DNA of 64,000 nt from assembly GCA_964603585.1 (NCBI GenBank), contig CAZRVK010000001.1, positions 5,327 through 69,326 of the forward strand, written 5' to 3'. The notes beneath the pieces were generated by a model, which was not told the DNA's origin, did no database searches, and worked only from the letters and a program-made list of their open reading frames with translations. How positions within the stretch are numbered: position 1 is the stretch's first letter; each line of letters begins with the position of its first letter. Both the position numbers and the translations under genes were made by a program. This document shows, piece by piece, positions 8,126-58,390 of the stretch. This stretch comes from an uncultured Planctomycetales bacterium (GTDB lineage Bacteria > Omnitrophota > Gorgyraeia > Gygaellales > Profunditerraquicolaceae).

Positions 8126-9673
8126 ATGGAAACCCGTTCAGACAAGGAAATTGATCTTTTAGTTAGATCACGCTATCCCTTGATCTATATCGTAAGCTGG
8201 GAAGAATCCCGGGTGCTCGAAAAGATCAAAACCATGTCCGAGCGCCACCAAAAGAAACTTTTAGTCTGGTCTACAACAAGAGGGATATTTACCCCTGAAG
8301 ACGGGCCTGAAAAAATAAACGAGGCGACCCGAGACCCTCTGAATGCGTTGAATCACATAGAGAAGTTCCCGGATCCGGCAATTTTTGTTTTCCTGGACTT
8401 CCATCCGTTTTTAGGCGACCAAACCGTGATCAGAAAACTGCGGGACCTGGTTTCAAACCTCAAGGGAACATATGAAACACTGATGATCCTTTCGCCGGTA
8501 TTAACCGTGCCGGTTGAATTGGAAAAAGACCTGTCGATTATTGATTATGACCTTCCGGATTATACCGAGATAAATGAATTGCTGGAGGCAATCCTACAGG
8601 TCGTCTCCAAGAATGAACAAATACAGATTGAACTGAATCCGCAAGACAGGGAAAAACTGGTAAAGGCATCACTTGGGCTAACCCGTTCAGAAGCAGAAAA
8701 TGCCTTTGCCAGAGTTATTGTAGAAGACAAAAGGTTGACCGTAAATGACGTGGAAAAGGTATTAGAGGAGAAAAAACAGGCGATCCGCAAAAGTAAACTG
8801 CTCGAATATTATGAATCAAAAGAGGAATTTGCTAACGTCGGAGGCCTTGATATCCTAAAGGATTGGCTTTTTACGCGAAGCTCTGCTTTTACCCAGCGCG
8901 CCCAGTCTTTCGGGCTACCCCAGCCAAAAGGGATAATGCTCCTGGGCGTACAGGGCTGCGGTAAAAGCCTGACGGCAAAAGCTGTTGCCAGTCTTTGGAA
9001 ACTACCTTTATTACGCCTGGATATTGGCGCGGTTTTCAGCGGGATCGTAGGCTCTTCCGAAGAAAACATGCGCAAAGCCATAAAAACCGCCGAAAACCTT
9101 GCCCCAATCATCCTCTGGATAGATGAGATCGAAAAAGGTTTATCCGGAGTGCAAAGTTCTTCATTTTCCGATGCCGGAACAGCTTCCAGAGTATTTAGCA
9201 CATTCTTAACCTGGCTTCAGGAAAAAACTGCCCCGGTATTCGTAATTGCTACCGCCAATAATATCCAGCAGCTCCCCCCTGAACTGCTGCGCAAAGGCAG
9301 ATTTGACGAGATTTTCTTTGTTGACCTGCCTTCATTAGAAGAACGCAAGGAAATATTCTCTATTCATATCAAAAAGAAAAAAAGGAGCCCGGAGCAATTC
9401 GACCTGCAAGCTCTGGCGGCGCAAAGCGATGGTTTCAGCGGAGCGGAAATTGAGCAAGCAATCGTCTCTTCACTATACGATGCCTTTATCAATAACCTTG
9501 ACATTACAACTGCCGGCATTCAGAAAAGTCTGAAAGAGGCCGTGCCCTTATCAACAACCATGAAGGAACAAATAGACCAGACCCGCGAATGGGCAAAATA
9601 CCGGGCACGCCCTACAAGCAGTGCAGGCGCAAAGAATATATCATTAAATAGCGGGCTAAAACTGGAATTTTAA
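8126..9673 (+). CDS. AAA+ ATPase, Ycf46-like (N-terminal alpha/beta domain plus classic AAA module)
   Basis: Walker [16 protein letters not shown], Walker [11 protein letters not shown], and second-region-of-homology-like [21 protein letters not shown]. The N-terminal region starting [12 protein letters not shown] is typical of Ycf46. Confidence 0.75.
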
Positions 9674-10374
9674 TGCTGAAGAAGATCCGTAAACGTTTTG
9701 AGAAAATTGAAAGTTCAGCAATCTATTTCAGAAATGATAGCGCAGAGCTGAAAAAATCAAAACGTTTTGAATGCCTGGAGATCGGCACGCGCAAGATAGA
9801 AATTGCCATTACCGATAAGATCTCTGCTATAGAAACCGCGCCGGATGAAATAAATTACTACGTTTTCTGCCCGTACTGTGGGAAAGAGAACCTGGCAATC
9901 TCAAAAACCTGCACCGGATGCAAACACTCTTTGGAAAGCAAATTGGCGGATAAATTCAATCGTACAACATCCCTGTTAAGAAAATGCACAGTTTGCCAGG
10001 CCATGAACACGAAGGGGCGGGAATTTTGTTGGGTTTGCGGGAAGAATTTACTTCACGATGCCCAACTAAATCCAGAAACAAAAAGTGATAATGTCATAAT
10101 CCTGAATCTTGATGGGGCTGAATACAGATCAACCGATACAAACCTGCCACTTGATGTAAAGGAGTTAATGGAGCAAATACGCCACCAAGGATATAAAAAA
10201 GAACTGATCGATGCCTGGATTTCAAATAAAGGCGGCAAAAATGATGATAAACTGGAGGGATTAAAACAGCAAATCGACCGGACGCAAACAGAATTCACAA
10301 GACGGCTTGTCGGGCTGATTATCGGAGGCGCAATCTTATTGATCTATATTATCTTAAGAATAAGCGGTTGTTAA
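9673..10374 (+). CDS. double zinc-ribbon protein with C-terminal TM anchor
   Basis: Two CxxC-x(n)-CxxC clusters (CPYCGKEN...CTGCKH and CTVCQAMN...CWVCGKN) and a hydrophobic C-terminus LVGLIIGGAILLIYIIL. The start overlaps the AAA stop (ATGA). Confidence 0.55.
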   Translation: MLKKIRKRFEKIESSAIYFRNDSAELKKSKRFECLEIGTRKIEIAITDKISAIETAPDEINYYVFCPYCGKENLAISKTCTGCKHSLESKLADKFNRTTSLLRKCTVCQAMNTKGREFCWVCGKNLLHDAQLNPETKSDNVIILNLDGAEYRSTDTNLPLDVKELMEQIRHQGYKKELIDAWISNKGGKNDDKLEGLKQQIDRTQTEFTRRLVGLIIGGAILLIYIILRISGC

Positions 10375-10386
10375 AAAGGAGATGCT

Positions 10387-10776
10387 ATGTCTTCAGGGGC
10401 GCATATAATCACTACCATAATGGAACTGATCGAGTTAAAGAACACACTTAACCAGTTAAAGGCCCAATATGAGGAAGTAAAAACCATGACTACCTGCGAT
10501 GGGATAAAACATAATGTCGAGATTATCATCAAAGACCCGAACGGGCGCAATATCGGCGTACAAAAATCCAAATCCGGCGAATACCAGTTCATCACCGATA
10601 CTACCGGACTAAAACCTAAAGATTTAAAAGCGCAAAATAAATTTGTTAATGCAATAAAACAGAAATATGCATATAATAAAGTGATCGCAGAGTTAAAACG
10701 GCAGGGTTATCAGATCGCGCAAGAGCAAAAAGTTGAGAACGATACTATAAAGCTGGTAGCCAGAAGGTGGAAGTAA
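10387..10776 (+). CDS. DUF1257 (Ycf35-like) protein
   Basis: C-terminal YAYNKVIAELKRQGYQIAQEQKVENDTIKLVARRW matches the DUF1257 consensus as I remember it. RBS AAGGAG lies upstream. Confidence 0.6.
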   Translation: MSSGAHIITTIMELIELKNTLNQLKAQYEEVKTMTTCDGIKHNVEIIIKDPNGRNIGVQKSKSGEYQFITDTTGLKPKDLKAQNKFVNAIKQKYAYNKVIAELKRQGYQIAQEQKVENDTIKLVARRWK

Positions 10777-10788
10777 AGGAGATCGATC

Positions 10789-52153: not shown

Positions 52154-52177
52154 TAGTACGTATGTATTCACCAAAAG

Positions 52178-52213
52178 CCCTCGAGGGAGCAATCCCTCGG
52201 GGGTTTTTGTTTT
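52178..52213 (+). terminator. rho-independent terminator after the OMP gene
   Basis: CCCTCGAGGGA-GCAA-TCCCTCGGGGG stem-loop followed by TTTTTGTTTT. Confidence 0.8.
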
Positions 52214-52245
52214 AGGTGGTAGGTGTTAGGTAATAGGTGTTAGGG
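52214..52245. repeat. left inverted repeat (GGTGTTAGG units) flanking the four-helix-bundle gene
   Basis: AGGTGGTAGGTGTTAGGTAATAGGTGTTAGGG is the reverse complement of the CACCTAACACC run at 52613-52651. Confidence 0.7.
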
Positions 52246-52248
52246 AAA

Positions 52249-52623
52249 ATGCAAGATAAAATAAATAGCTTTGAAGATTTAAAGGTATATCAGAAATTAT
52301 GTAAGTTGCATATTGAAATACACTATTTAACCCTAACCTCCCCTGATATCGAAAAGTTTGAATTAGCTTCCCAATTAAGACGATCAACAAATTCTGCCCC
52401 AGCAAACCTCGCAGAAGGCTGGAATAACAAAAACTTAAATATATATTTAGAAGGGATTAACCGCAGCCAAGGAGAAATCAGAGAAACAAAACATCATTTA
52501 TCTATGGCATATCATAAAAAATATATTGCTGAAAATAAATTTAAATATTTTACACAGGAATATGATGATTGTGGTAAAATGTTAACCGGCCTAAGAAATT
52601 CATTGGAAAAACACAACACCTAA
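52249..52623 (+). CDS. four-helix-bundle protein (23S rRNA intervening-sequence protein family)
   Basis: FEDLKVYQKLCKLHIEIHYLT...ELASQLRRSTNSAPANLAEGW...RSQGEIRETKHHL matches the family. About 125 aa. The stop codon lies inside the right-hand IR. Confidence 0.7.
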   Translation: MQDKINSFEDLKVYQKLCKLHIEIHYLTLTSPDIEKFELASQLRRSTNSAPANLAEGWNNKNLNIYLEGINRSQGEIRETKHHLSMAYHKKYIAENKFKYFTQEYDDCGKMLTGLRNSLEKHNT

Positions 52624-52654: not shown

Positions 52655-54202
52655 ATGCTAAACCTCGCCTTTATTTTCCACATGCACCAGCCGTATTACA
52701 AGAACCTGCTCACTAACGAGACTGAACTCCCCTGGGTACGCCTGCACGGGGTCAAGGATTACATCGATATGGCTTTAGTGCTGAACAAATTCCCGGATAT
52801 CCATCAGACGTTCAATTTCGTGCCATCGCTTCTGGAACAGGCCGAAGATTATACTGACCGCTCGGTCAAGGATAAATTCCTTGAGCTTTCCTATAAACAT
52901 GCCGATGAATTGACAGCTCATGAAAAAGAGTTCATTATTAATAATTTCTTTATGATTGACCGCGACCATGTAATCGCCATGCATCCGCGTTATTATGAAC
53001 TCTATTATAAAAAAGAGGAGAACCGCCATTTCAGCCTGCAGGATATCCTTGACCTCCAGGTATGGTTCAATCTTGCCTGGATAGACCCTTATTTCAGGGA
53101 AACTATTCCCGAATTAAAGAAAATAACGGCTAAAGCCAGGTTTTTCACGGAAGAAGAGAAACATATTGTCTTAGATAAGCAAATATTCATTATAGAAGAC
53201 CTCTTTGAAACCTATAAAGACTTTATCGCAAAAAAACAGGTAGAGGTAAGTATAACCCCATATTACCATCCCATTCTGCCCCTTTTATGCAATACGAACA
53301 TTGCCAAAGAAGCAAATTTAAAAACCATTCTACCGAAGATCGGTTTTTCTTACCCAGAAGACGCCAAACAACAGATTAATGATGCGGTAAGTTACTTTAA
53401 AGCGAAATTCGGCAGTGCGCCGCTTGGCATGTGGCCATCAGAAGAGGGGGTAAGCGAACATATCCTGCCGTTTATAATAGATTCGGGTATAAAATGGATA
53501 GTAGCCGATGAAGCCATCCTCTTTAAATCAATGAAATCAAAGAAAAGGGACACTAAACTCCTGTATCAGCCGCATCTTTTAAGCCGGGCCAACGGAGACT
53601 TGAATATCGTTTTCCGTGACCGTAACCTGTCGGATCTTATTGGCTTTAATTATCACAAGTGGGAAACTAAAGCCGCCGTAGATGACTTTATGCACCATTT
53701 AAAGAACACTGCCGATGCCTTCGGCGGCAAAGACATACTCCTTACCATCGCTATGGATGGAGAAAATGCCTGGGAATACTACCATAATGACGGGCATGAT
53801 TTCCTGGAATTGTTATATACAAAACTATCCGAAGCTAAATTCGTAAAGACCACGACTGTAAGCGAATATTTAAAGCGTCACCCCGCTACTCATAAGATCA
53901 AGCACTTGTCCGCCGGATCATGGATTTACGGTGAGTTCGGTAAATGGATCGGCAATCCCCATAAGGTCCGGGCTTGGGAGATATTGGCGATGGCACGCAA
54001 CGAACTTCAGGATATGATAGATAAAAAAGAGCATATTCCACCGCTGGCTTGGAAACAAATGCATATCTGTGAAGGAAGCGATTGGTTTTGGTGGTATGGC
54101 GAGGGACATACCGAATTCGACAAACTTTTCCGGCTGCATCTAAGTAATTTCTACACTATGCTTGGCAAGGAGATACCTCAACACCTTAAGAATCCCATAT
54201 AG
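52655..54202 (+). CDS. GH57 family alpha-glucan-active enzyme (branching enzyme / amylase-type)
   Basis: N-terminal LAFIFHMHQPYY, WIVADEAIL, AMDGENAWEY, and a C-terminal helical domain. 515 aa. Confidence 0.85.
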   Translation: MLNLAFIFHMHQPYYKNLLTNETELPWVRLHGVKDYIDMALVLNKFPDIHQTFNFVPSLLEQAEDYTDRSVKDKFLELSYKHADELTAHEKEFIINNFFMIDRDHVIAMHPRYYELYYKKEENRHFSLQDILDLQVWFNLAWIDPYFRETIPELKKITAKARFFTEEEKHIVLDKQIFIIEDLFETYKDFIAKKQVEVSITPYYHPILPLLCNTNIAKEANLKTILPKIGFSYPEDAKQQINDAVSYFKAKFGSAPLGMWPSEEGVSEHILPFIIDSGIKWIVADEAILFKSMKSKKRDTKLLYQPHLLSRANGDLNIVFRDRNLSDLIGFNYHKWETKAAVDDFMHHLKNTADAFGGKDILLTIAMDGENAWEYYHNDGHDFLELLYTKLSEAKFVKTTTVSEYLKRHPATHKIKHLSAGSWIYGEFGKWIGNPHKVRAWEILAMARNELQDMIDKKEHIPPLAWKQMHICEGSDWFWWYGEGHTEFDKLFRLHLSNFYTMLGKEIPQHLKNPI

Positions 54203-54267
54203 AAGTAAATAATCACCTGTCCGGCAACCCGATAAAGAAAATGGTTTTTATCGACTGAAACAAAAGG

Positions 54268-54296
54268 TTGACAGACAATCTATTTTATGTTATAAA
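54268..54296 (+). promoter_or_regulatory. sigma-70 promoter TTGACA-17-TATAAA
   Basis: Hexamers at 54268-54273 and 54291-54296, upstream of the 54308 gene. Confidence 0.6.
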
Positions 54297-54307
54297 ATAT
54301 CATTAAT

Positions 54308-54874
54308 TTGCAAATGGACAAAAAAGATATTTACGAACATCTTGCCAAAATATACCTTGACGCCTCTGATAAAAAGAATAAAAAAGGAAAACGGATACCA
54401 AACCGTAAGAATATTTTTGTCTTTGGTATCATCCTGGTGGCAGGAGTCAGCGTATTCCTATTTTCTGCTCTTAATAAAAATCGCCCGGCCGGCAGTGAAA
54501 CTGCTTTATACCTGGTGCCGGATATTGCTAAGATCAATTTTAATTTTGACCCGGCCAAACAGGAAAGCTATTCCCTTGACCTGAAGAAACTCGACCTGGG
54601 CCGGTATAAGACTCTTAGTTTTTCCGTAAAAAAGAGCAGCCAGTCGGATACAATCGCTTTAAAGCTTGAATTTACAAGCTCCTTTAAGGAGCATGCTTCG
54701 ATTTATCTTAAGGATATTCCGGTAAATTGGCGAGAATATAAAATATCCTTAAGCGATTTTAAGAATATAACCGACTGGTCGAACATGTCAAAGGTTTCAT
54801 TCATTATCGAGGAATGGAACACCAGAGTTAACAACGGGATCGTCTATCTTGAAAATATAAGATTTTTACGATAA
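54308..54874 (+). CDS. hypothetical single-pass membrane protein with beta-rich extracytoplasmic domain
   Basis: Basic N-terminus, a TM helix (IFVFGIILVAGVSVFLFSAL), and about 130 aa of unassigned domain. Confidence 0.45.
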   Translation: MQMDKKDIYEHLAKIYLDASDKKNKKGKRIPNRKNIFVFGIILVAGVSVFLFSALNKNRPAGSETALYLVPDIAKINFNFDPAKQESYSLDLKKLDLGRYKTLSFSVKKSSQSDTIALKLEFTSSFKEHASIYLKDIPVNWREYKISLSDFKNITDWSNMSKVSFIIEEWNTRVNNGIVYLENIRFLR

Positions 54875-54887
54875 GGAGGGGGCACGA

Positions 54888-55994
54888 ATGCGCATAATTG
54901 CGATCACTAACCAAAAAGGCGGATGCGGCAAGACCACAACCTCAATCAATCTTTCAGCTACCTTAGCCGCAAACGGCCGGCGCGTGCTGCTTATCGATTT
55001 AGATCCCCAGGCTCATGCTACTTTAGGCTTAAACCTGGCACCAGAATTCAGTATTTATAACGTACTTTCCAAACTTACTAACAAAAAAGTCCGCCTGGCG
55101 GATATCATACTCAACGTTTCCGGCAATTTCGATATTGCGCCCTCCAGTATTGTCTTAAGCACCCTGGAACAGGAGTTAGCCGGAGAGATCAGCCGGGAAT
55201 CCCGCCTTTGGGAGATATTAACCAATTTTGAGGGTAAATATGACTATATCCTTATCGATTGCCCTCCTAACCTGGGTATTTTGACCATTAACGCCATCCG
55301 GGCAGCAGGGGAGATCATCATCCCGGTCGAAGCCAGCCGTTTTTCACTCGAAGGATTATCACAGCTGATCGATATCATAACCCTGATCCAGGACCGCCTC
55401 AAACATATGGTCAATTACCGTGTTTTAGTTACTAACTTTGATTCTCGGTTAAGGCATTCCTTCAAAATACTTGATTATATTAAAGCCACGTTCAAAAACA
55501 GCTTATTCAGCAACATCATCCATGTAAATGTCAAGTTAAAAGAAGCCCAGAGCCAGGGGACCCACGTGCTTAATTACGATAAATACTGCCGTGGAGCAAA
55601 GGATTACTTCAGCTTAGCCAGAGAGATCATAACCCAGGAGAACAGCTTAACGCCCGCTAAAGAAGAAAAAGATAAAGCTATTTCCCTTTCTGATAAAATG
55701 AAAAAAGCGATCAAAGAAAACCTGCCAAAATTAAACGAGCTTGTATTTTCCATAACTGCTCCGGAAGCAAAAGAAGTTCACCTCGTAGGAGACTTTAATA
55801 ACTGGCAATTGGGTGAAGAAAGCAACATGTCCCGAGATAACGGTGCTTGGACAAAAAGATTGCCGCTTAATCCCGGAAAATACCACTACCGTTTTGTCGT
55901 AGATGGCACCTGGATCGAAGACCCGGCTAATCCAAGAACCGCTAAAAACCCTTTTGGCCAGATGAATTCCTTGATCGAAATTGAGAATAAATAG
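54888..55994 (+). CDS. ParA/MinD-family ATPase fused to a C-terminal CBM48/AMPK-beta-like glycogen-binding domain
   Basis: Deviant Walker A ITNQKGGCGKTTTSINL and the ParA core to about residue 255. The C-terminal 85 aa VFSITAPEAKEVHLVGDFNNWQ...GKYHYRFVVDGTWIEDPANP is the CBM48/E-set glycogen-binding signature. RBS AAGGAGGG. Confidence 0.8.
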   Translation: MRIIAITNQKGGCGKTTTSINLSATLAANGRRVLLIDLDPQAHATLGLNLAPEFSIYNVLSKLTNKKVRLADIILNVSGNFDIAPSSIVLSTLEQELAGEISRESRLWEILTNFEGKYDYILIDCPPNLGILTINAIRAAGEIIIPVEASRFSLEGLSQLIDIITLIQDRLKHMVNYRVLVTNFDSRLRHSFKILDYIKATFKNSLFSNIIHVNVKLKEAQSQGTHVLNYDKYCRGAKDYFSLAREIITQENSLTPAKEEKDKAISLSDKMKKAIKENLPKLNELVFSITAPEAKEVHLVGDFNNWQLGEESNMSRDNGAWTKRLPLNPGKYHYRFVVDGTWIEDPANPRTAKNPFGQMNSLIEIENK

Positions 55995-56373: not shown

Positions 56374-56739
56374 ATGTCTGTTAAGAAGATGAAGAAAAAA
56401 ACAAAAAAATCCCAACTAAAGAAAAACAAACGTAAGTCCACTCTAAAGAAAACACCCGCCAAAAGGAAAAAACCGGTATCCAAAATAAAAAAACCGGCAG
56501 TTGTAGGGATAATTACGCATTACTTTCCCAAGGTAAGGGCTGCGGTAATAAAATTAAAGATCCCTCTAAAGATAAATGACAGAATAAAAATTAAAGGGCA
56601 TACCACCGATTTTTGCCAGAATGTCACTTCAATGCAGGTAGATAAGCAAATACTCACACAGGCTAGAAAAGGCCAAATCATCGGGCTTTTAGTAGATTCC
56701 CGGGTACGCCATCATGATATCATCTATAAGGAATCGTAA
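56374..56739 (+). CDS. lysine-rich (histone H1-like tail) protein with C-terminal EF-Tu-domain-2-like beta-barrel
   Basis: The first 45 aa are more than 50% Lys/Arg (KKMKKKTKKSQLKKNKRKSTLKKTPAKRKKPVSKIKKP). The C-terminus VVGIITHYFPKVRAAVIKLK...GQIIGLLV resembles the EFTu_D2 barrel. Confidence 0.5.
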   Translation: MSVKKMKKKTKKSQLKKNKRKSTLKKTPAKRKKPVSKIKKPAVVGIITHYFPKVRAAVIKLKIPLKINDRIKIKGHTTDFCQNVTSMQVDKQILTQARKGQIIGLLVDSRVRHHDIIYKES

Positions 56740-57462
56740 ATGACCTTAGCCATCAGCATCATCACTAAAAATGGAATCGCCTTTGCCGCAGACAGCCGGG
56801 TCACAAGCGGCGACCCCAGAGGCCCGACTACGGTAAACGATACCGTTAAAAAGATATTCGAGCTTGGAAACTCCTGCGGGCTGACAATCGCCGGGGACGG
56901 CGGATTGGGAGCAAGTATTATAGACCTTATATATTATGAGCTGCACAAAAATCCCGAATACCTGTATTTAAGCGTCGATGAAATGCTTGCGGTCTGCCGG
57001 GAAAGCGCGATAAAAAGATACAATGAGTGGTTTGGCGGGGTAAATTTCGAAGATCGACCTACATTACATATCATATTAAGCGGTTATCGTAAGGATATCT
57101 CGACGGCACGATTCATCGATGCCCCAGAAATATTTACCTTGCACAGCGAACGCAATTTTGCTCCGCACCGCTGGACATTATTGGGATTCATGGCAATCGG
57201 GATTACGCCACTGGCGACATATCTGTTAAACACTCTTTATTCAAGAGAAATCAGCTTAAAACACGGGCTGGAGCTTGCGGCATTGGCGATCCTTGAGACC
57301 GCATCCCAGGATGGTAAAGTCGGCAAGGATATTCAACTGGCTTCATGCTCATTGGAACAAAAATTCAATATCTATTCCCAAGATGAAACCTATGAATATA
57401 TCTATCAAGCGCAACGTCATAAGGAAAACCTGAAAAAAGCGTTCTATAACAAAGAAAACTAA
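56740..57462 (+). CDS. proteasome beta-subunit homolog (Ntn hydrolase, Anbu/BPH-like), orphan
   Basis: Thr immediately after the initiator Met (MTLAISIITKNGIAFAADSRVTSG), a conserved Lys about 35 residues later (TVKKIFEL), and GLTIAGDGGLGASII. 240 aa. Start ATG overlaps the upstream stop (TAAATG). Confidence 0.65.
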   Translation: MTLAISIITKNGIAFAADSRVTSGDPRGPTTVNDTVKKIFELGNSCGLTIAGDGGLGASIIDLIYYELHKNPEYLYLSVDEMLAVCRESAIKRYNEWFGGVNFEDRPTLHIILSGYRKDISTARFIDAPEIFTLHSERNFAPHRWTLLGFMAIGITPLATYLLNTLYSREISLKHGLELAALAILETASQDGKVGKDIQLASCSLEQKFNIYSQDETYEYIYQAQRHKENLKKAFYNKEN

Positions 57463-57474
57463 AAAGGAGAAGAA

Positions 57475-57657
57475 ATGAGACTTTCAGAAGTCGAGAAAAA
57501 AGCACGTGACCTGGGGATCAAGAATACCTGGAAGTATTCAAAAAAAGACCTCATAAAAACCATTCAAGCTAAAGAAGGCAATATCGCCTGTTTTGCCACG
57601 GCAAAAGGATCCTGCACGCAAACACTTTGCTGTTGGAAAGAAGATTGCCTGCATTAA
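57475..57657 (+). CDS. small protein with Rho_N-like N-terminus and C-terminal Cys cluster
   Basis: Good RBS AAGGAGAAG. EVEKKARDLGIKNTWKYSKKDLIKTIQ resembles the Rho_N/SAP-like motif; then CFATAKGSCTQTLCCWKEDC. Confidence 0.35.
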   Translation: MRLSEVEKKARDLGIKNTWKYSKKDLIKTIQAKEGNIACFATAKGSCTQTLCCWKEDCLH

Positions 57658-57710: not shown

Positions 57711-57896
57711 ATGAAATATCGCTGCCAGATTTGTGACCGGGATATCGACGATTTCGCCAGTTTAACCCATATCAAAAGCGAAGAATACCTCCTAAAACTG
57801 ATCCAGAAGGACCACCCGGAGTGGACAGACGAAGAAAAAACCTGCCATCAGTGTATAGAGTATTACCGCAAGATGGTAAAAAGCGCTGAAATTTAA
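57711..57896 (+). CDS. small zinc-ribbon protein
   Basis: CQICDR ... CHQC (CxxC x2). 61 aa. Confidence 0.35.
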   Translation: MKYRCQICDRDIDDFASLTHIKSEEYLLKLIQKDHPEWTDEEKTCHQCIEYYRKMVKSAEI

Positions 57897-58045: not shown

Positions 58046-58390
58046 ATGGAACCTCGCGGCAGGCCGAAAAAATACCGGATTGTCAGGCTGGACCCTAAAA
58101 TCAGCCAATTCAGCCCCAGAGGCCGTGCAGGCAGGCCGGATGAAACCGACCTGAACATGGATGAATTCGAAGCTATCAGGCTGGCAGATTTCCTGGGAGT
58201 AAAGCAAAAAGAAGCCGCAGAATCAATGCACATATCCCAACAAACCTTTAGCCGCATACTTAAAAAAGCCCACCGCAGAATTGCCGATTGCCTGGTTAAC
58301 GGCAAGATCATCAAGATCCAGGGCGGTTATTATGTAATCAGCTCAAAGATAGAGCACACTAGCCAGTCAAACACCCACAATAATTACTAA
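58046..58390 (+). CDS. DUF134 (UPF0251) family putative DNA-binding regulator
   Basis: RGRPKKYRIV...PRGR...EFEAIRLADFLGVKQKEAAESMHISQQTFSRILKKAHRRIADCLVNGKIIKI is the sigma-70 region-4-like HTH typical of DUF134. Confidence 0.65.
   Translation: MEPRGRPKKYRIVRLDPKISQFSPRGRAGRPDETDLNMDEFEAIRLADFLGVKQKEAAESMHISQQTFSRILKKAHRRIADCLVNGKIIKIQGGYYVISSKIEHTSQSNTHNNY

Follow-up and report, generated by a model that had tools for sequence, protein, structure and literature searches.

Fuchs, Alva, and Lupas catalogued 22 new families of proteasome-like proteins in 2021 (Bioinformatics 37:4694; PMC8665760), and none of these new homologs has a co-occurring AAA+ interactor or an informative gene context. 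The Widespread Proteasome Homolog (WPH), represented by the RefSeq entry WP_040339656.1, is described in that survey as tightly connected to alpha and beta subunits alike, as lacking a propeptide, and as carrying a C-terminal helix H5 for which, as for Anbu, a coiled coil is predicted (PMC8665760). Table 1 of the survey places WPH in the Proteobacteria, the Actinobacteria, the Planctomycetes-Verrucomicrobia-Chlamydiae (PVC) group, other bacteria, the Euryarchaeota, the Crenarchaeota, and other archaea, with none in the Firmicutes, Bacteroidetes, or Cyanobacteria. The PHI family is distinguished by a long pore-loop insertion (PMC8665760). We report here on a gene for a proteasome-like protein in 64,000 nucleotides of DNA from an uncultured bacterium, labeled Planctomycetales and assigned by GTDB to the Omnitrophota (GenBank assembly GCA_964603585.1, contig CAZRVK010000001.1, positions 5,327 to 69,326 of the forward strand). 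This whole stretch is called the window below, and coordinates are counted from its first nucleotide. The gene encodes a 240-amino-acid protein that, judged from its sequence and a structural model, is a proteasome-family N-terminal nucleophile (Ntn) hydrolase without a propeptide. The open reading frame (ORF) is intact, and the encoded N terminus reads MTLAISIITKNGIAFAADSRVTSG.

56740..57462, + strand: gene for a 240-amino-acid stand-alone proteasome-like (T1 Ntn-hydrolase) protein, best match WPH

The protein scores 42.4 bits with Pfam PF00227, whose gathering score is 22.4 (E value of 8e-11), and a precomputed match to the same model was present in every listed homolog except one truncated fragment. 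Sixty close homologs, with 73 to 93% identity, are full length. A profile built from 22 family members and searched against the PDB matched the archaeal 20S beta subunit of M. jannaschii over its full length at an E value of 2.4e-12, and the alpha5 and alpha3 subunits at about 1e-8. By sequence, then, 20S PsmB and PsmA are the closest relatives, and the best 60 profile matches in the PDB are all 20S subunits (E values of 3e-6 or lower). An AlphaFold2 single-chain model, with a predicted local distance difference test (pLDDT) score of 89.1 and a predicted template modeling score (pTM) of 0.87, has the expected strand order and helices H1 to H5, and the alpha-beta-beta-alpha Ntn sandwich with helices H1 to H4 is found in it. 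When the model was searched with Foldseek, the top template modeling (TM) score was with native Anbu (0.72/0.74), probably because a long C-terminal helix is common to both, and the best E values were with alpha5-type subunits. The C-terminal third of the protein likewise gives better scores against archaeal alpha-subunit models. The Pfam score above the gathering threshold, the profile, the AlphaFold2 model, and Foldseek agree on the proteasome-type Ntn assignment that had been proposed in the first-pass annotation of this DNA. Viral structures in BFVD yielded only distant HslV, PPH, or AAH-like phage proteins (TM scores of 0.59 or lower) that lie outside the proteasome-homolog family, and PHROGs gave only marginal N-terminal matches, including an HslV-family phrog at an E value of 0.012. 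From the model, we infer that the C-terminal helix may serve in contacts within an oligomer.

57379..57447, + strand: long C-terminal helix H5, residues 214-236, Anbu-like, predicted to make an inter-subunit or coiled-coil contact (DSSP on the model; longest alignments to Anbu)

Catalytic residues were mapped by alignments to the M. jannaschii beta subunit, and residues are called invariant on the basis of alignment A1. Conservation was counted over 273 family members, the denominators being the sequences aligned at each position. In this mapping, T2 corresponds to Thr1 of the proteasome, D18 to Asp17, R20 to Arg19, K38 to Lys33, G52 to Gly47, and D191 to Asp166. The sites are located as follows.

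56743..56745, + strand: Thr2 codon, predicted N-terminal nucleophile (Thr1) after Met removal, by alignment to M. jannaschii beta Thr1
56791..56799, + strand: Asp18-Ser19-Arg20, with the equivalents of Asp17 and Arg19, both invariant in A1
56803..56847, + strand: conserved loop TSGDPRGPTTVNDTV, spanning residues 22-36 and exceeding its counterpart in archaeal 20S beta by 4 residues
56851..56853, + strand: Lys38 codon, Lys33 equivalent, predicted to act as general base/acid in the triad; its match in M. jannaschii beta is the second K of AKKLY
56893..56895, + strand: Gly52 codon, Gly47 equivalent, predicted oxyanion hole, within LTIAGDG; aligns with the G of TIAGS
57199..57204, + strand: Gly154-Ile155, site of the proteasomal Gly128-Ser129; Ser is replaced by Ile/Val family-wide
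57295..57324, + strand: signature block ETASQDGKVG, residues 186-195, with Asp191 (Asp166) and Val194 (in place of Ser169)

Only two of the sequences aligned at the position after the initiator Met have a residue other than Thr or Ser there, and the equivalents of Asp17, Lys33, and Gly47 are conserved in 269/270, 271/271, and 271/272 aligned members, respectively. An MT or MS start was found in 115 of 118 full-length homologs. In all 44 loci with an intact N terminus, the start codon, be it ATG, GTG, or TTG, directly precedes the Thr or Ser, which indicates that no member of the family has a propeptide. The motifs first pointed out from the sequence of this single gene, namely, a Thr after Met, AADSR.T.G, a Lys, and a glycine-rich segment, are thus real; they align with proteasome catalytic residues, and the Thr2, Lys, and Gly motifs are near-invariant across the family. 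Within the loop of residues 22-36, T22, P26, T30, and N33 are invariant in A1, and conservation of G24, D25, R27, and D34 reaches at least 90%. This loop is the sole segment of the AlphaFold2 model with a pLDDT below 50, and K38 follows a 4-residue insertion that is specific to the proteasome-homolog family. The loop is predicted to be flexible and to lie beside the substrate channel, and it may have a role in specificity. In the signature block, E186, T187, A188, Q190, D191, K193, and V194 are invariant in A1. The equivalent of Ser129 is Ile or Val in 84/84 closer relatives and in 145/189 distant ones, with Ser in only 7. The loop, together with the hydrophobic replacements of Ser129 and Ser169, suggests a specificity or chemistry unlike that of 20S beta subunits.

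How the protein relates to the established proteasome-like systems was examined family by family. Close as it is to the 20S subunits by sequence, it falls far below the NCBIfam equivalog cutoffs, scoring 39.3 versus 224 bits for archaeal beta (TIGR03634), 27 versus 219 bits for the archaeal alpha equivalog, and 13.7 versus 191.9 bits for TIGR03690. It also differs from 20S subunits in having neither a propeptide nor an alpha-type N-terminal extension, in the hydrophobic residues at the Ser129 and Ser169 positions, in an S2-S3 loop that is 4 residues longer and conserved, and in its long H5. No alpha/beta gene pair and no PAN/Mpa-type ATPase gene was found near the window gene. Anbu, the ancestral beta subunit, was reportedly described by Valas and Bourne in 2008 and by Fuchs et al. 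in 2017, and PDB entries 5NYW, 5LOX, and 5LOY are said to represent it. The window protein is like Anbu in its length of about 240 amino acids, its Met-Thr start, the lack of a propeptide or an ATPase partner, and a beta-like fold with an extended C-terminal helix. However, the Anbu operon genes, encoding ATP-grasp, alpha-E, and transglutaminase proteins, were not found in the window and did not recur in 44 related loci, and structural alignments with Anbu show only 18 to 19% identity. No Anbu, HslV, or BPH chain was detected at an E value of 10 or lower by phmmer against the PDB, and none was among the best 60 profile matches. HslV and BPH share the Met-Thr start, the absence of a propeptide, and the common core fold and triad, and BPH is likewise without a known ATPase. 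They are, however, compact proteins (about 175 to 195 amino acids) that lack S12/H5, whereas the window protein has H5. There is no hslU adjacent to the window gene, and group I (HslV and BPH) is far more beta-like than alpha-like, whereas the window protein resembles both. On these comparisons, we rejected HslV, BPH, Anbu, and canonical 20S beta as identities for the protein. Connectase was rejected as well; neither the two-helix S3-S4 insertion nor the loss of H1/H2 that marks connectase was found. The initial description of the protein as Anbu/BPH-like therefore holds for its Anbu-like fold and is wrong as regards BPH, and the sequence is closer to the archaeal 20S alpha and beta subunits than to Anbu.

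The published description of WPH fits best. Thr1/Ser1, Asp17, Lys33, Gly47, a proteasome-like fold, and the absence of a propeptide are common to both, and the window family resembles both alpha and beta 20S subunits, as WPH does. Helix H5 is present at residues 214-236, and about 10 residues separate H2 from the next strand, so there is no long pore-loop insertion, which disfavors PHI. Both families lack an AAA+ partner and an informative operon, and both are experimentally uncharacterized. The two also share a patchy spread over the Proteobacteria, Actinobacteria, PVC group, other bacteria, and three archaeal groups. Matches to the window family came from 40 GTDB genomes, which belong to the Omnitrophota and Sedimentisphaerales (both PVC), an alphaproteobacterium, the Actinomycetota, Acidobacteriota, Chloroflexota, Aminicenantes, Spirochaetota, Saccharibacteria, Dormiibacterota, Vulcanimicrobiota, and Gemmatimonadales, and, among the archaea, the Thermoplasmata, Bathyarchaeota, and a DPANN archaeon (Iainarchaeum). 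The Bathyarchaeota were taken as a stand-in for the TACK/Crenarchaeota column of the WPH table. No Firmicutes, Bacteroidetes, or Cyanobacteria were among these 40 genomes. One difference is that the survey gives neither phage members nor gene context for WPH, whereas the family examined here has phage-borne members, neighboring integrases, and clade-specific small partners, all described below. We found no later paper on WPH in the searchable literature, and nothing relevant on the Omnitrophota and the proteasome. The window protein is thus a probable WPH, matched by published description and not by sequence.

A gene of this type might be expected to have partners nearby. Run in six frames over the window, the family hidden Markov model (HMM) found no further gene of the proteasome family. 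Genes for ATP-grasp, alpha-E, and transglutaminase proteins were absent among the identifiable ORFs of the window, a few ORFs being without any Pfam match, and no AAA+ ATPase, alpha subunit, or Anbu operon gene recurred in the 44 loci, each of 14 to 20 kb. The first-pass annotation had reported that an alpha subunit, HslU, and Anbu operon neighbors are lacking, and none is adjacent in the window or in the 44 related loci. Its further statement that the 64 kb contain no ATPase is not strictly true. A 515-amino-acid classical AAA ATPase is encoded at 8126..9673 (PF00004, 101 bits; Walker A at residue 274), about 47 kb from the proteasome homolog, and it is the only classical AAA (PF00004) gene found in the window. 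It is the obvious partner candidate to check, yet there is no evidence of a partnership. As a docking unfoldase it was rejected, since it lies some 47 kb off among conserved-looking neighbors of its own and its C terminus is ...LEF and not HbYX. The ATPase gene is followed by genes for a double zinc-ribbon protein (9673..10374) and a DUF1257 protein (10387..10776), in what looks like a small conserved cluster. The N-terminal region of the ATPase is, by its appearance, presumably Ycf46-like. To judge from the gene content of the window and the 44 related loci, the proteasome homolog probably works without the usual partner proteins. Within that scope it is a genuine orphan, as had been claimed, but not of a new kind, 22 such families having been catalogued in 2021 (PMC8665760).

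Taking the fold, the active site, and the surroundings together, we favor, with moderate confidence, the picture of a stand-alone Ntn threonine peptidase within the proteasome superfamily. The protein would be made without a propeptide, and methionine aminopeptidase, which accepts Thr or Ser next to the initiator, would remove Met1 to expose the Thr as residue 1. Invariance and fold suggest that the Thr1 O-gamma attacks the peptide bond with the aid of K38 (Lys33) and D18 (Asp17), and that the backbone NH of G52 (Gly47) forms the oxyanion hole. Activity probably needs self-assembly, perhaps into a ring, a double ring, or an Anbu-like helical oligomer, with H5 bridging the subunits. With no dedicated ATPase, the substrates would be peptides or unfolded or small proteins, and specificity is likely to lie in the GDPRGxTxxND loop, which is conserved, flexible, and next to the active site.

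Several observations weigh against this picture. The agreement with WPH is an agreement of descriptors, and the homologs that carry an organism name all come from metagenome-assembled genomes (MAGs), the others being anonymous metagenomic sequences. No RefSeq isolate is among them, while WPH itself is represented by a RefSeq WP_ entry. Two otherwise full-length close homologs, P0009 and P0064, have Ile and Met, respectively, and not Thr at position 2 (MILAIS... and MMLAIG...). Each of these changes is one nucleotide from a Thr codon, and the two proteins could be inactive variants or products of sequencing errors. The residues that hold the Thr1 amine are changed family-wide, Ser129 to Ile/Val and Ser169 to Val, with D191 (Asp166) kept, and because of these replacements the chemistry may differ or the activity may be weak. 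The Ser129/Asp166/Ser169 network is typical of active 20S beta subunits and is not needed for membership in the superfamily. We found no experimental work on the window protein or on WPH in the literature searched. Anbu and BPH are, to our knowledge, also refractory to standard peptidase assays.

The missing Ser129 and Ser169 equivalents could also be read as a sign that the protein is a catalytically inert, alpha-like structural or scaffold subunit, or a remnant in decay that some Omnitrophota merely happen to have retained. The pull of the C-terminal third toward archaeal alpha models and the alpha5-type Foldseek matches are in keeping with that idea, as is the frequent absence of the gene from an otherwise conserved array of small genes, described below. 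Still, we regard it as very improbable. There is no alpha-type N-terminal extension, and a start codon stands directly before the Thr or Ser in every lineage. The triad and the oxyanion Gly stay invariant in relatives with as little as about 30% identity and in members from two domains of life, which points to purifying selection on catalysis, and an intact ORF of host-typical composition with 60 full-length close homologs does not have the look of a remnant.

The immediate neighbors of the proteasome homolog are three genes for very small proteins, as follows.

56374..56739, + strand: 121-amino-acid protein, Lys-rich in its N-terminal tail and with a small C-terminal domain that resembles a beta-barrel, array gene 1; weak similarity to GTP_EFTU_D2 (E value of 0.3)
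57475..57657, + strand: 60-amino-acid Rho_N/SAP-like protein with the C-terminal Cys motif C..CCW..DC, array gene 2; Rho_N at an E value of 2.3e-4
57711..57896, + strand: 61-amino-acid CxxC...CxxC zinc-ribbon protein, array gene 3; weak zinc-ribbon matches

At 56737..56742, the sequence TAAATG joins the TAA of the Lys-rich ORF directly to the ATG of the proteasome homolog, and a plausible ribosome binding site, AAGGA, lies inside the 3' end of the Lys-rich gene. The ORF position, the length of 240 amino acids, and the TAAATG junction were all correctly given at the outset. The further proposal, that the junction marks a translationally coupled module of the proteasome homolog and the Lys-rich protein, did not survive a wider comparison. 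A Lys-rich protein is found upstream only in closely related, fully syntenic Omnitrophota loci, in which the identity is 74 to 81%. Where the identity drops to about 50% and about 40%, in the next clades, the upstream position is taken by a GIY-YIG-like protein of 112 to 121 amino acids that is unrelated to it, and the Lys-rich protein is in none of the diverged clades with a readable upstream gene (L003, L049, L011, and L005). At another locus, P0073, the upstream slot is occupied by a 121-amino-acid gene, known by its length only. Viewed from the partner side, a metagenome scan with the barrel domain of the Lys-rich protein gave more than 541 relatives, and 57 fetched loci had enough downstream sequence to be counted. 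The proteasome homolog was present in 11 of the 57, always in the same slot. In the 46 loci without it, the Rho_N/Cys 60-mer follows the Lys-rich gene after 9 to 180 nucleotides in 42, which thus join the array directly, and the zinc-ribbon 61-mer follows after about 200 to 260 nucleotides in 35. These counts indicate that the conserved unit is Lys-rich barrel, Rho_N/Cys, and zinc ribbon, with the proteasome homolog as an optional gene between the first and the second. The Lys-rich protein, being absent from the next clades and mostly present without the proteasome homolog, was rejected as a dedicated partner, and the tight link between the two genes appears to be incidental.

Loci with and without the proteasome homolog are interleaved on a tree of the barrel gene, which at 77 residues has low resolution. 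The insert is most simply explained by a single old acquisition with repeated losses thereafter, and in this Omnitrophota lineage the proteasome homolog is probably an accessory, optional insert that is often lost. The GC and GC3 contents of the gene are host-typical (z scores of 0.31 and 0.48, respectively), and no integrase-like ORF stood out in the ORF survey of the window; neither result supports a recent horizontal insertion of the window copy, which we rejected. A promoter and terminator scan of the region from 52 to 59 kb found a sole convincing + strand terminator, at 52172..52209, and on that account the proteasome homolog belongs to a long co-directional cluster. Membership in this cluster says nothing specific about its function.

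The three-gene array of tiny proteins is itself widespread and conserved, occurring in more than 541 metagenomic stretches, and in the window it is followed by a DUF134 regulator at 58046..58390.

An exhaustive profile search of 1.84 billion cluster representatives gave 106 clusters at 50% identity with E values of 1e-30 or lower and 506 with E values of 1e-10 or lower. A second homolog search, seeded with an actinobacterial member of what is called clade B below, returned metagenomic and MAG proteins only. The family is apparently modest in size, real, and almost entirely from uncultured organisms. A neighbor-joining tree resolved two clades. Clade A, with an SRAT/SRVT motif, contains the window gene and other Omnitrophota, the GIY-YIG-associated groups, the alphaproteobacterium, two phage contigs, and an Acidobacteriota group that has Ser as the nucleophile. 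Clade B, with an SRGT motif, draws on many bacterial phyla and on archaea, and its branching is at odds with taxonomy. On the family tree, for example, the Spirochaetota nest among the Chloroflexota and the Bathyarchaeota stand beside a phage copy.

Small neighboring genes recur in a clade-specific manner. In 24 clade B loci, a small ORF of 55 to 104 amino acids lies on the same strand directly downstream of the proteasome homolog, at distances from an overlap to about 120 nucleotides. Its product has the core GP...IYxVTLxSGxIVTSPxxF, followed by a variable tail (loci L015 to L045), and it matched nothing in Pfam, PADLOC, or PHROGs. An HMM of this ORF found no match in the window or in the Omnitrophota, and its presence there was rejected. 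In the clade A loci L003 and L049, the GIY-YIG-like protein overlaps the start of the homolog or ends 5 nucleotides or less upstream. It carries the motif GVYRLSYKS.DG..YVFYVG.AED...RL, scores 21.6 to 22.0 bits with Pfam GIY-YIG, below the cutoff of 22.6, and is 45 to 65% identical between copies, of which the one in L011 has an in-frame stop.

L032:7368-7625, L038:4556-4762, and L030:4360-4608: examples of the clade B small ORF
L003:7630-7995, L049:5666-6004, and L011:~220-592: GIY-YIG-like copies, upstream of or overlapping the proteasome homolog

That each clade has its own tightly coupled small neighbor, the downstream ORF in 24 distant loci and the GIY-YIG-like protein in L003, L049, and L011, raises the thought of a sequence-specific processing protease or a connectase-like transpeptidase acting on neighboring small proteins. 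The substrates or regulators would be the Lys-rich or Rho_N/Cys protein in the Omnitrophota, the GIY-YIG-like protein in the sister clades, and the small downstream ORF in the distant clade. Connectase is a precedent for a proteasome homolog that serves as a specific ligase, the flexible loop beside the active site is unusually conserved, and the loss of Ser129 and Ser169 suggests an altered chemistry. The small partners are, however, unrelated between clades, hence there is no common substrate, and the flanking genes of the Omnitrophota occur without the proteasome homolog in 46 of 57 loci, hence they are independent of it. We therefore hold this alternative to be doubtful, though worth serious thought, and keep to a stand-alone peptidase as the preferred reading.

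Members of the family are also found on mobile DNA. Family members with 33 to 37% identity to the window protein are encoded on three IMG/VR contigs that also have genes for terminase, portal, major head, and tail proteins.

L046:10001-10708, L047:~9980-10786, and L048:10001-10738: phage-borne family members

A tyrosine integrase lies within 7 kb of a family member in 10 of 44 loci. Two of these loci, L029 and L030, have the integrase directly next to a tRNA-Pro and the proteasome homolog just inside, which suggests that these two copies are carried on integrative elements. N6_N4 DNA methyltransferases are encoded close to the homologs in L003, L049, and the phage contig L046. These findings point to integrative elements and phages as vehicles of the family, at least of clade B. 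By tblastn, no match was obtained in 50,697 GenBank phage records or in 72,556 PLSDB plasmids, and PADLOC defense models matched neither the protein, its three small neighbors, nor the clade B small ORF. Neither the clade-specific partners nor the mobility was reported for WPH in the 2021 survey (PMC8665760).

The three genuine tailed-phage contigs, the integrases, and the disagreement of the family tree with taxonomy could mean that the protein is mobile-element cargo used in conflicts between phage and host or between elements, whether in activating or destroying a toxin or nuclease or in counter-defense, with the Omnitrophota copy domesticated or stranded. The DNA methyltransferases and the GIY-YIG-like nuclease domain near the homologs in L003, L049, and L046 would suit such a role. 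We consider it quite unlikely, given that no PADLOC model matches the protein or its neighbors, that GenBank phages and plasmids yielded nothing, and that the window copy sits among housekeeping genes with host-like composition, no integrase nearby, and synteny kept across Omnitrophota genomes at 74 to 81% identity. It is also conceivable, if unlikely, that the family is a separate, uncatalogued lineage and not WPH, spread by integrative elements and phages and acting as processing proteases or ligases on clade-specific small partners, with an active site rewired by Ser129 to Ile/Val, Ser169 to Val, and the GDPRGxTxxND lid loop. The partners meant here are the downstream ORF of 55 to 104 amino acids, the GIY-YIG-like protein, and the small flanking proteins of the Omnitrophota. 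A stand-alone peptidase, probably WPH, remains the reading that we prefer.

Two other groups of genes in the window were noted. A GH57 glycoside hydrolase (52655..54202) is followed by a 188-amino-acid protein without a Pfam match and by a ParA/MinD-type ATPase (54888..55994) that is fused to a C-terminal glycogen-binding module (AMPK1_CBM/CBM48). This arrangement, spanning 52655..55994, is syntenic in other Omnitrophota (L001 and L051) and could be a ParA-like positioning system for glycogen granules. A 23S_rRNA_IVP-family protein of 128 amino acids is encoded at 52237..52623 (PF05635, 85 bits), with a GC content of 31% against a window mean of 44%. The gene comes just after the region's only strong terminator (52172..52209), and a gene of the same family also lies about 0.9 kb upstream of the proteasome homolog in L003.

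The window gene is a genuine orphan proteasome-like peptidase of a class that was catalogued computationally in 2021, probably with this very family included. What has been learned about this gene amounts largely to a correction. The gene is real, but it represents no novel type of system, and the neighbor that looked like its operon partner is incidental. Leads of greater use come from beyond the window, where the conserved small partner genes and the association with phages and mobile elements in parts of the family give concrete hypotheses of function. We found no experimental study of any of the 22 families catalogued in 2021 in the searchable literature, and a clean, full-length Omnitrophota example with an intact triad and altered surroundings of the Thr1 amine is a reasonable candidate for expression and structure work. 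Proteasome-like proteases that lack an ATPase bear on the origin of self-compartmentalizing proteolysis and on the roles that such particles have without unfoldases.

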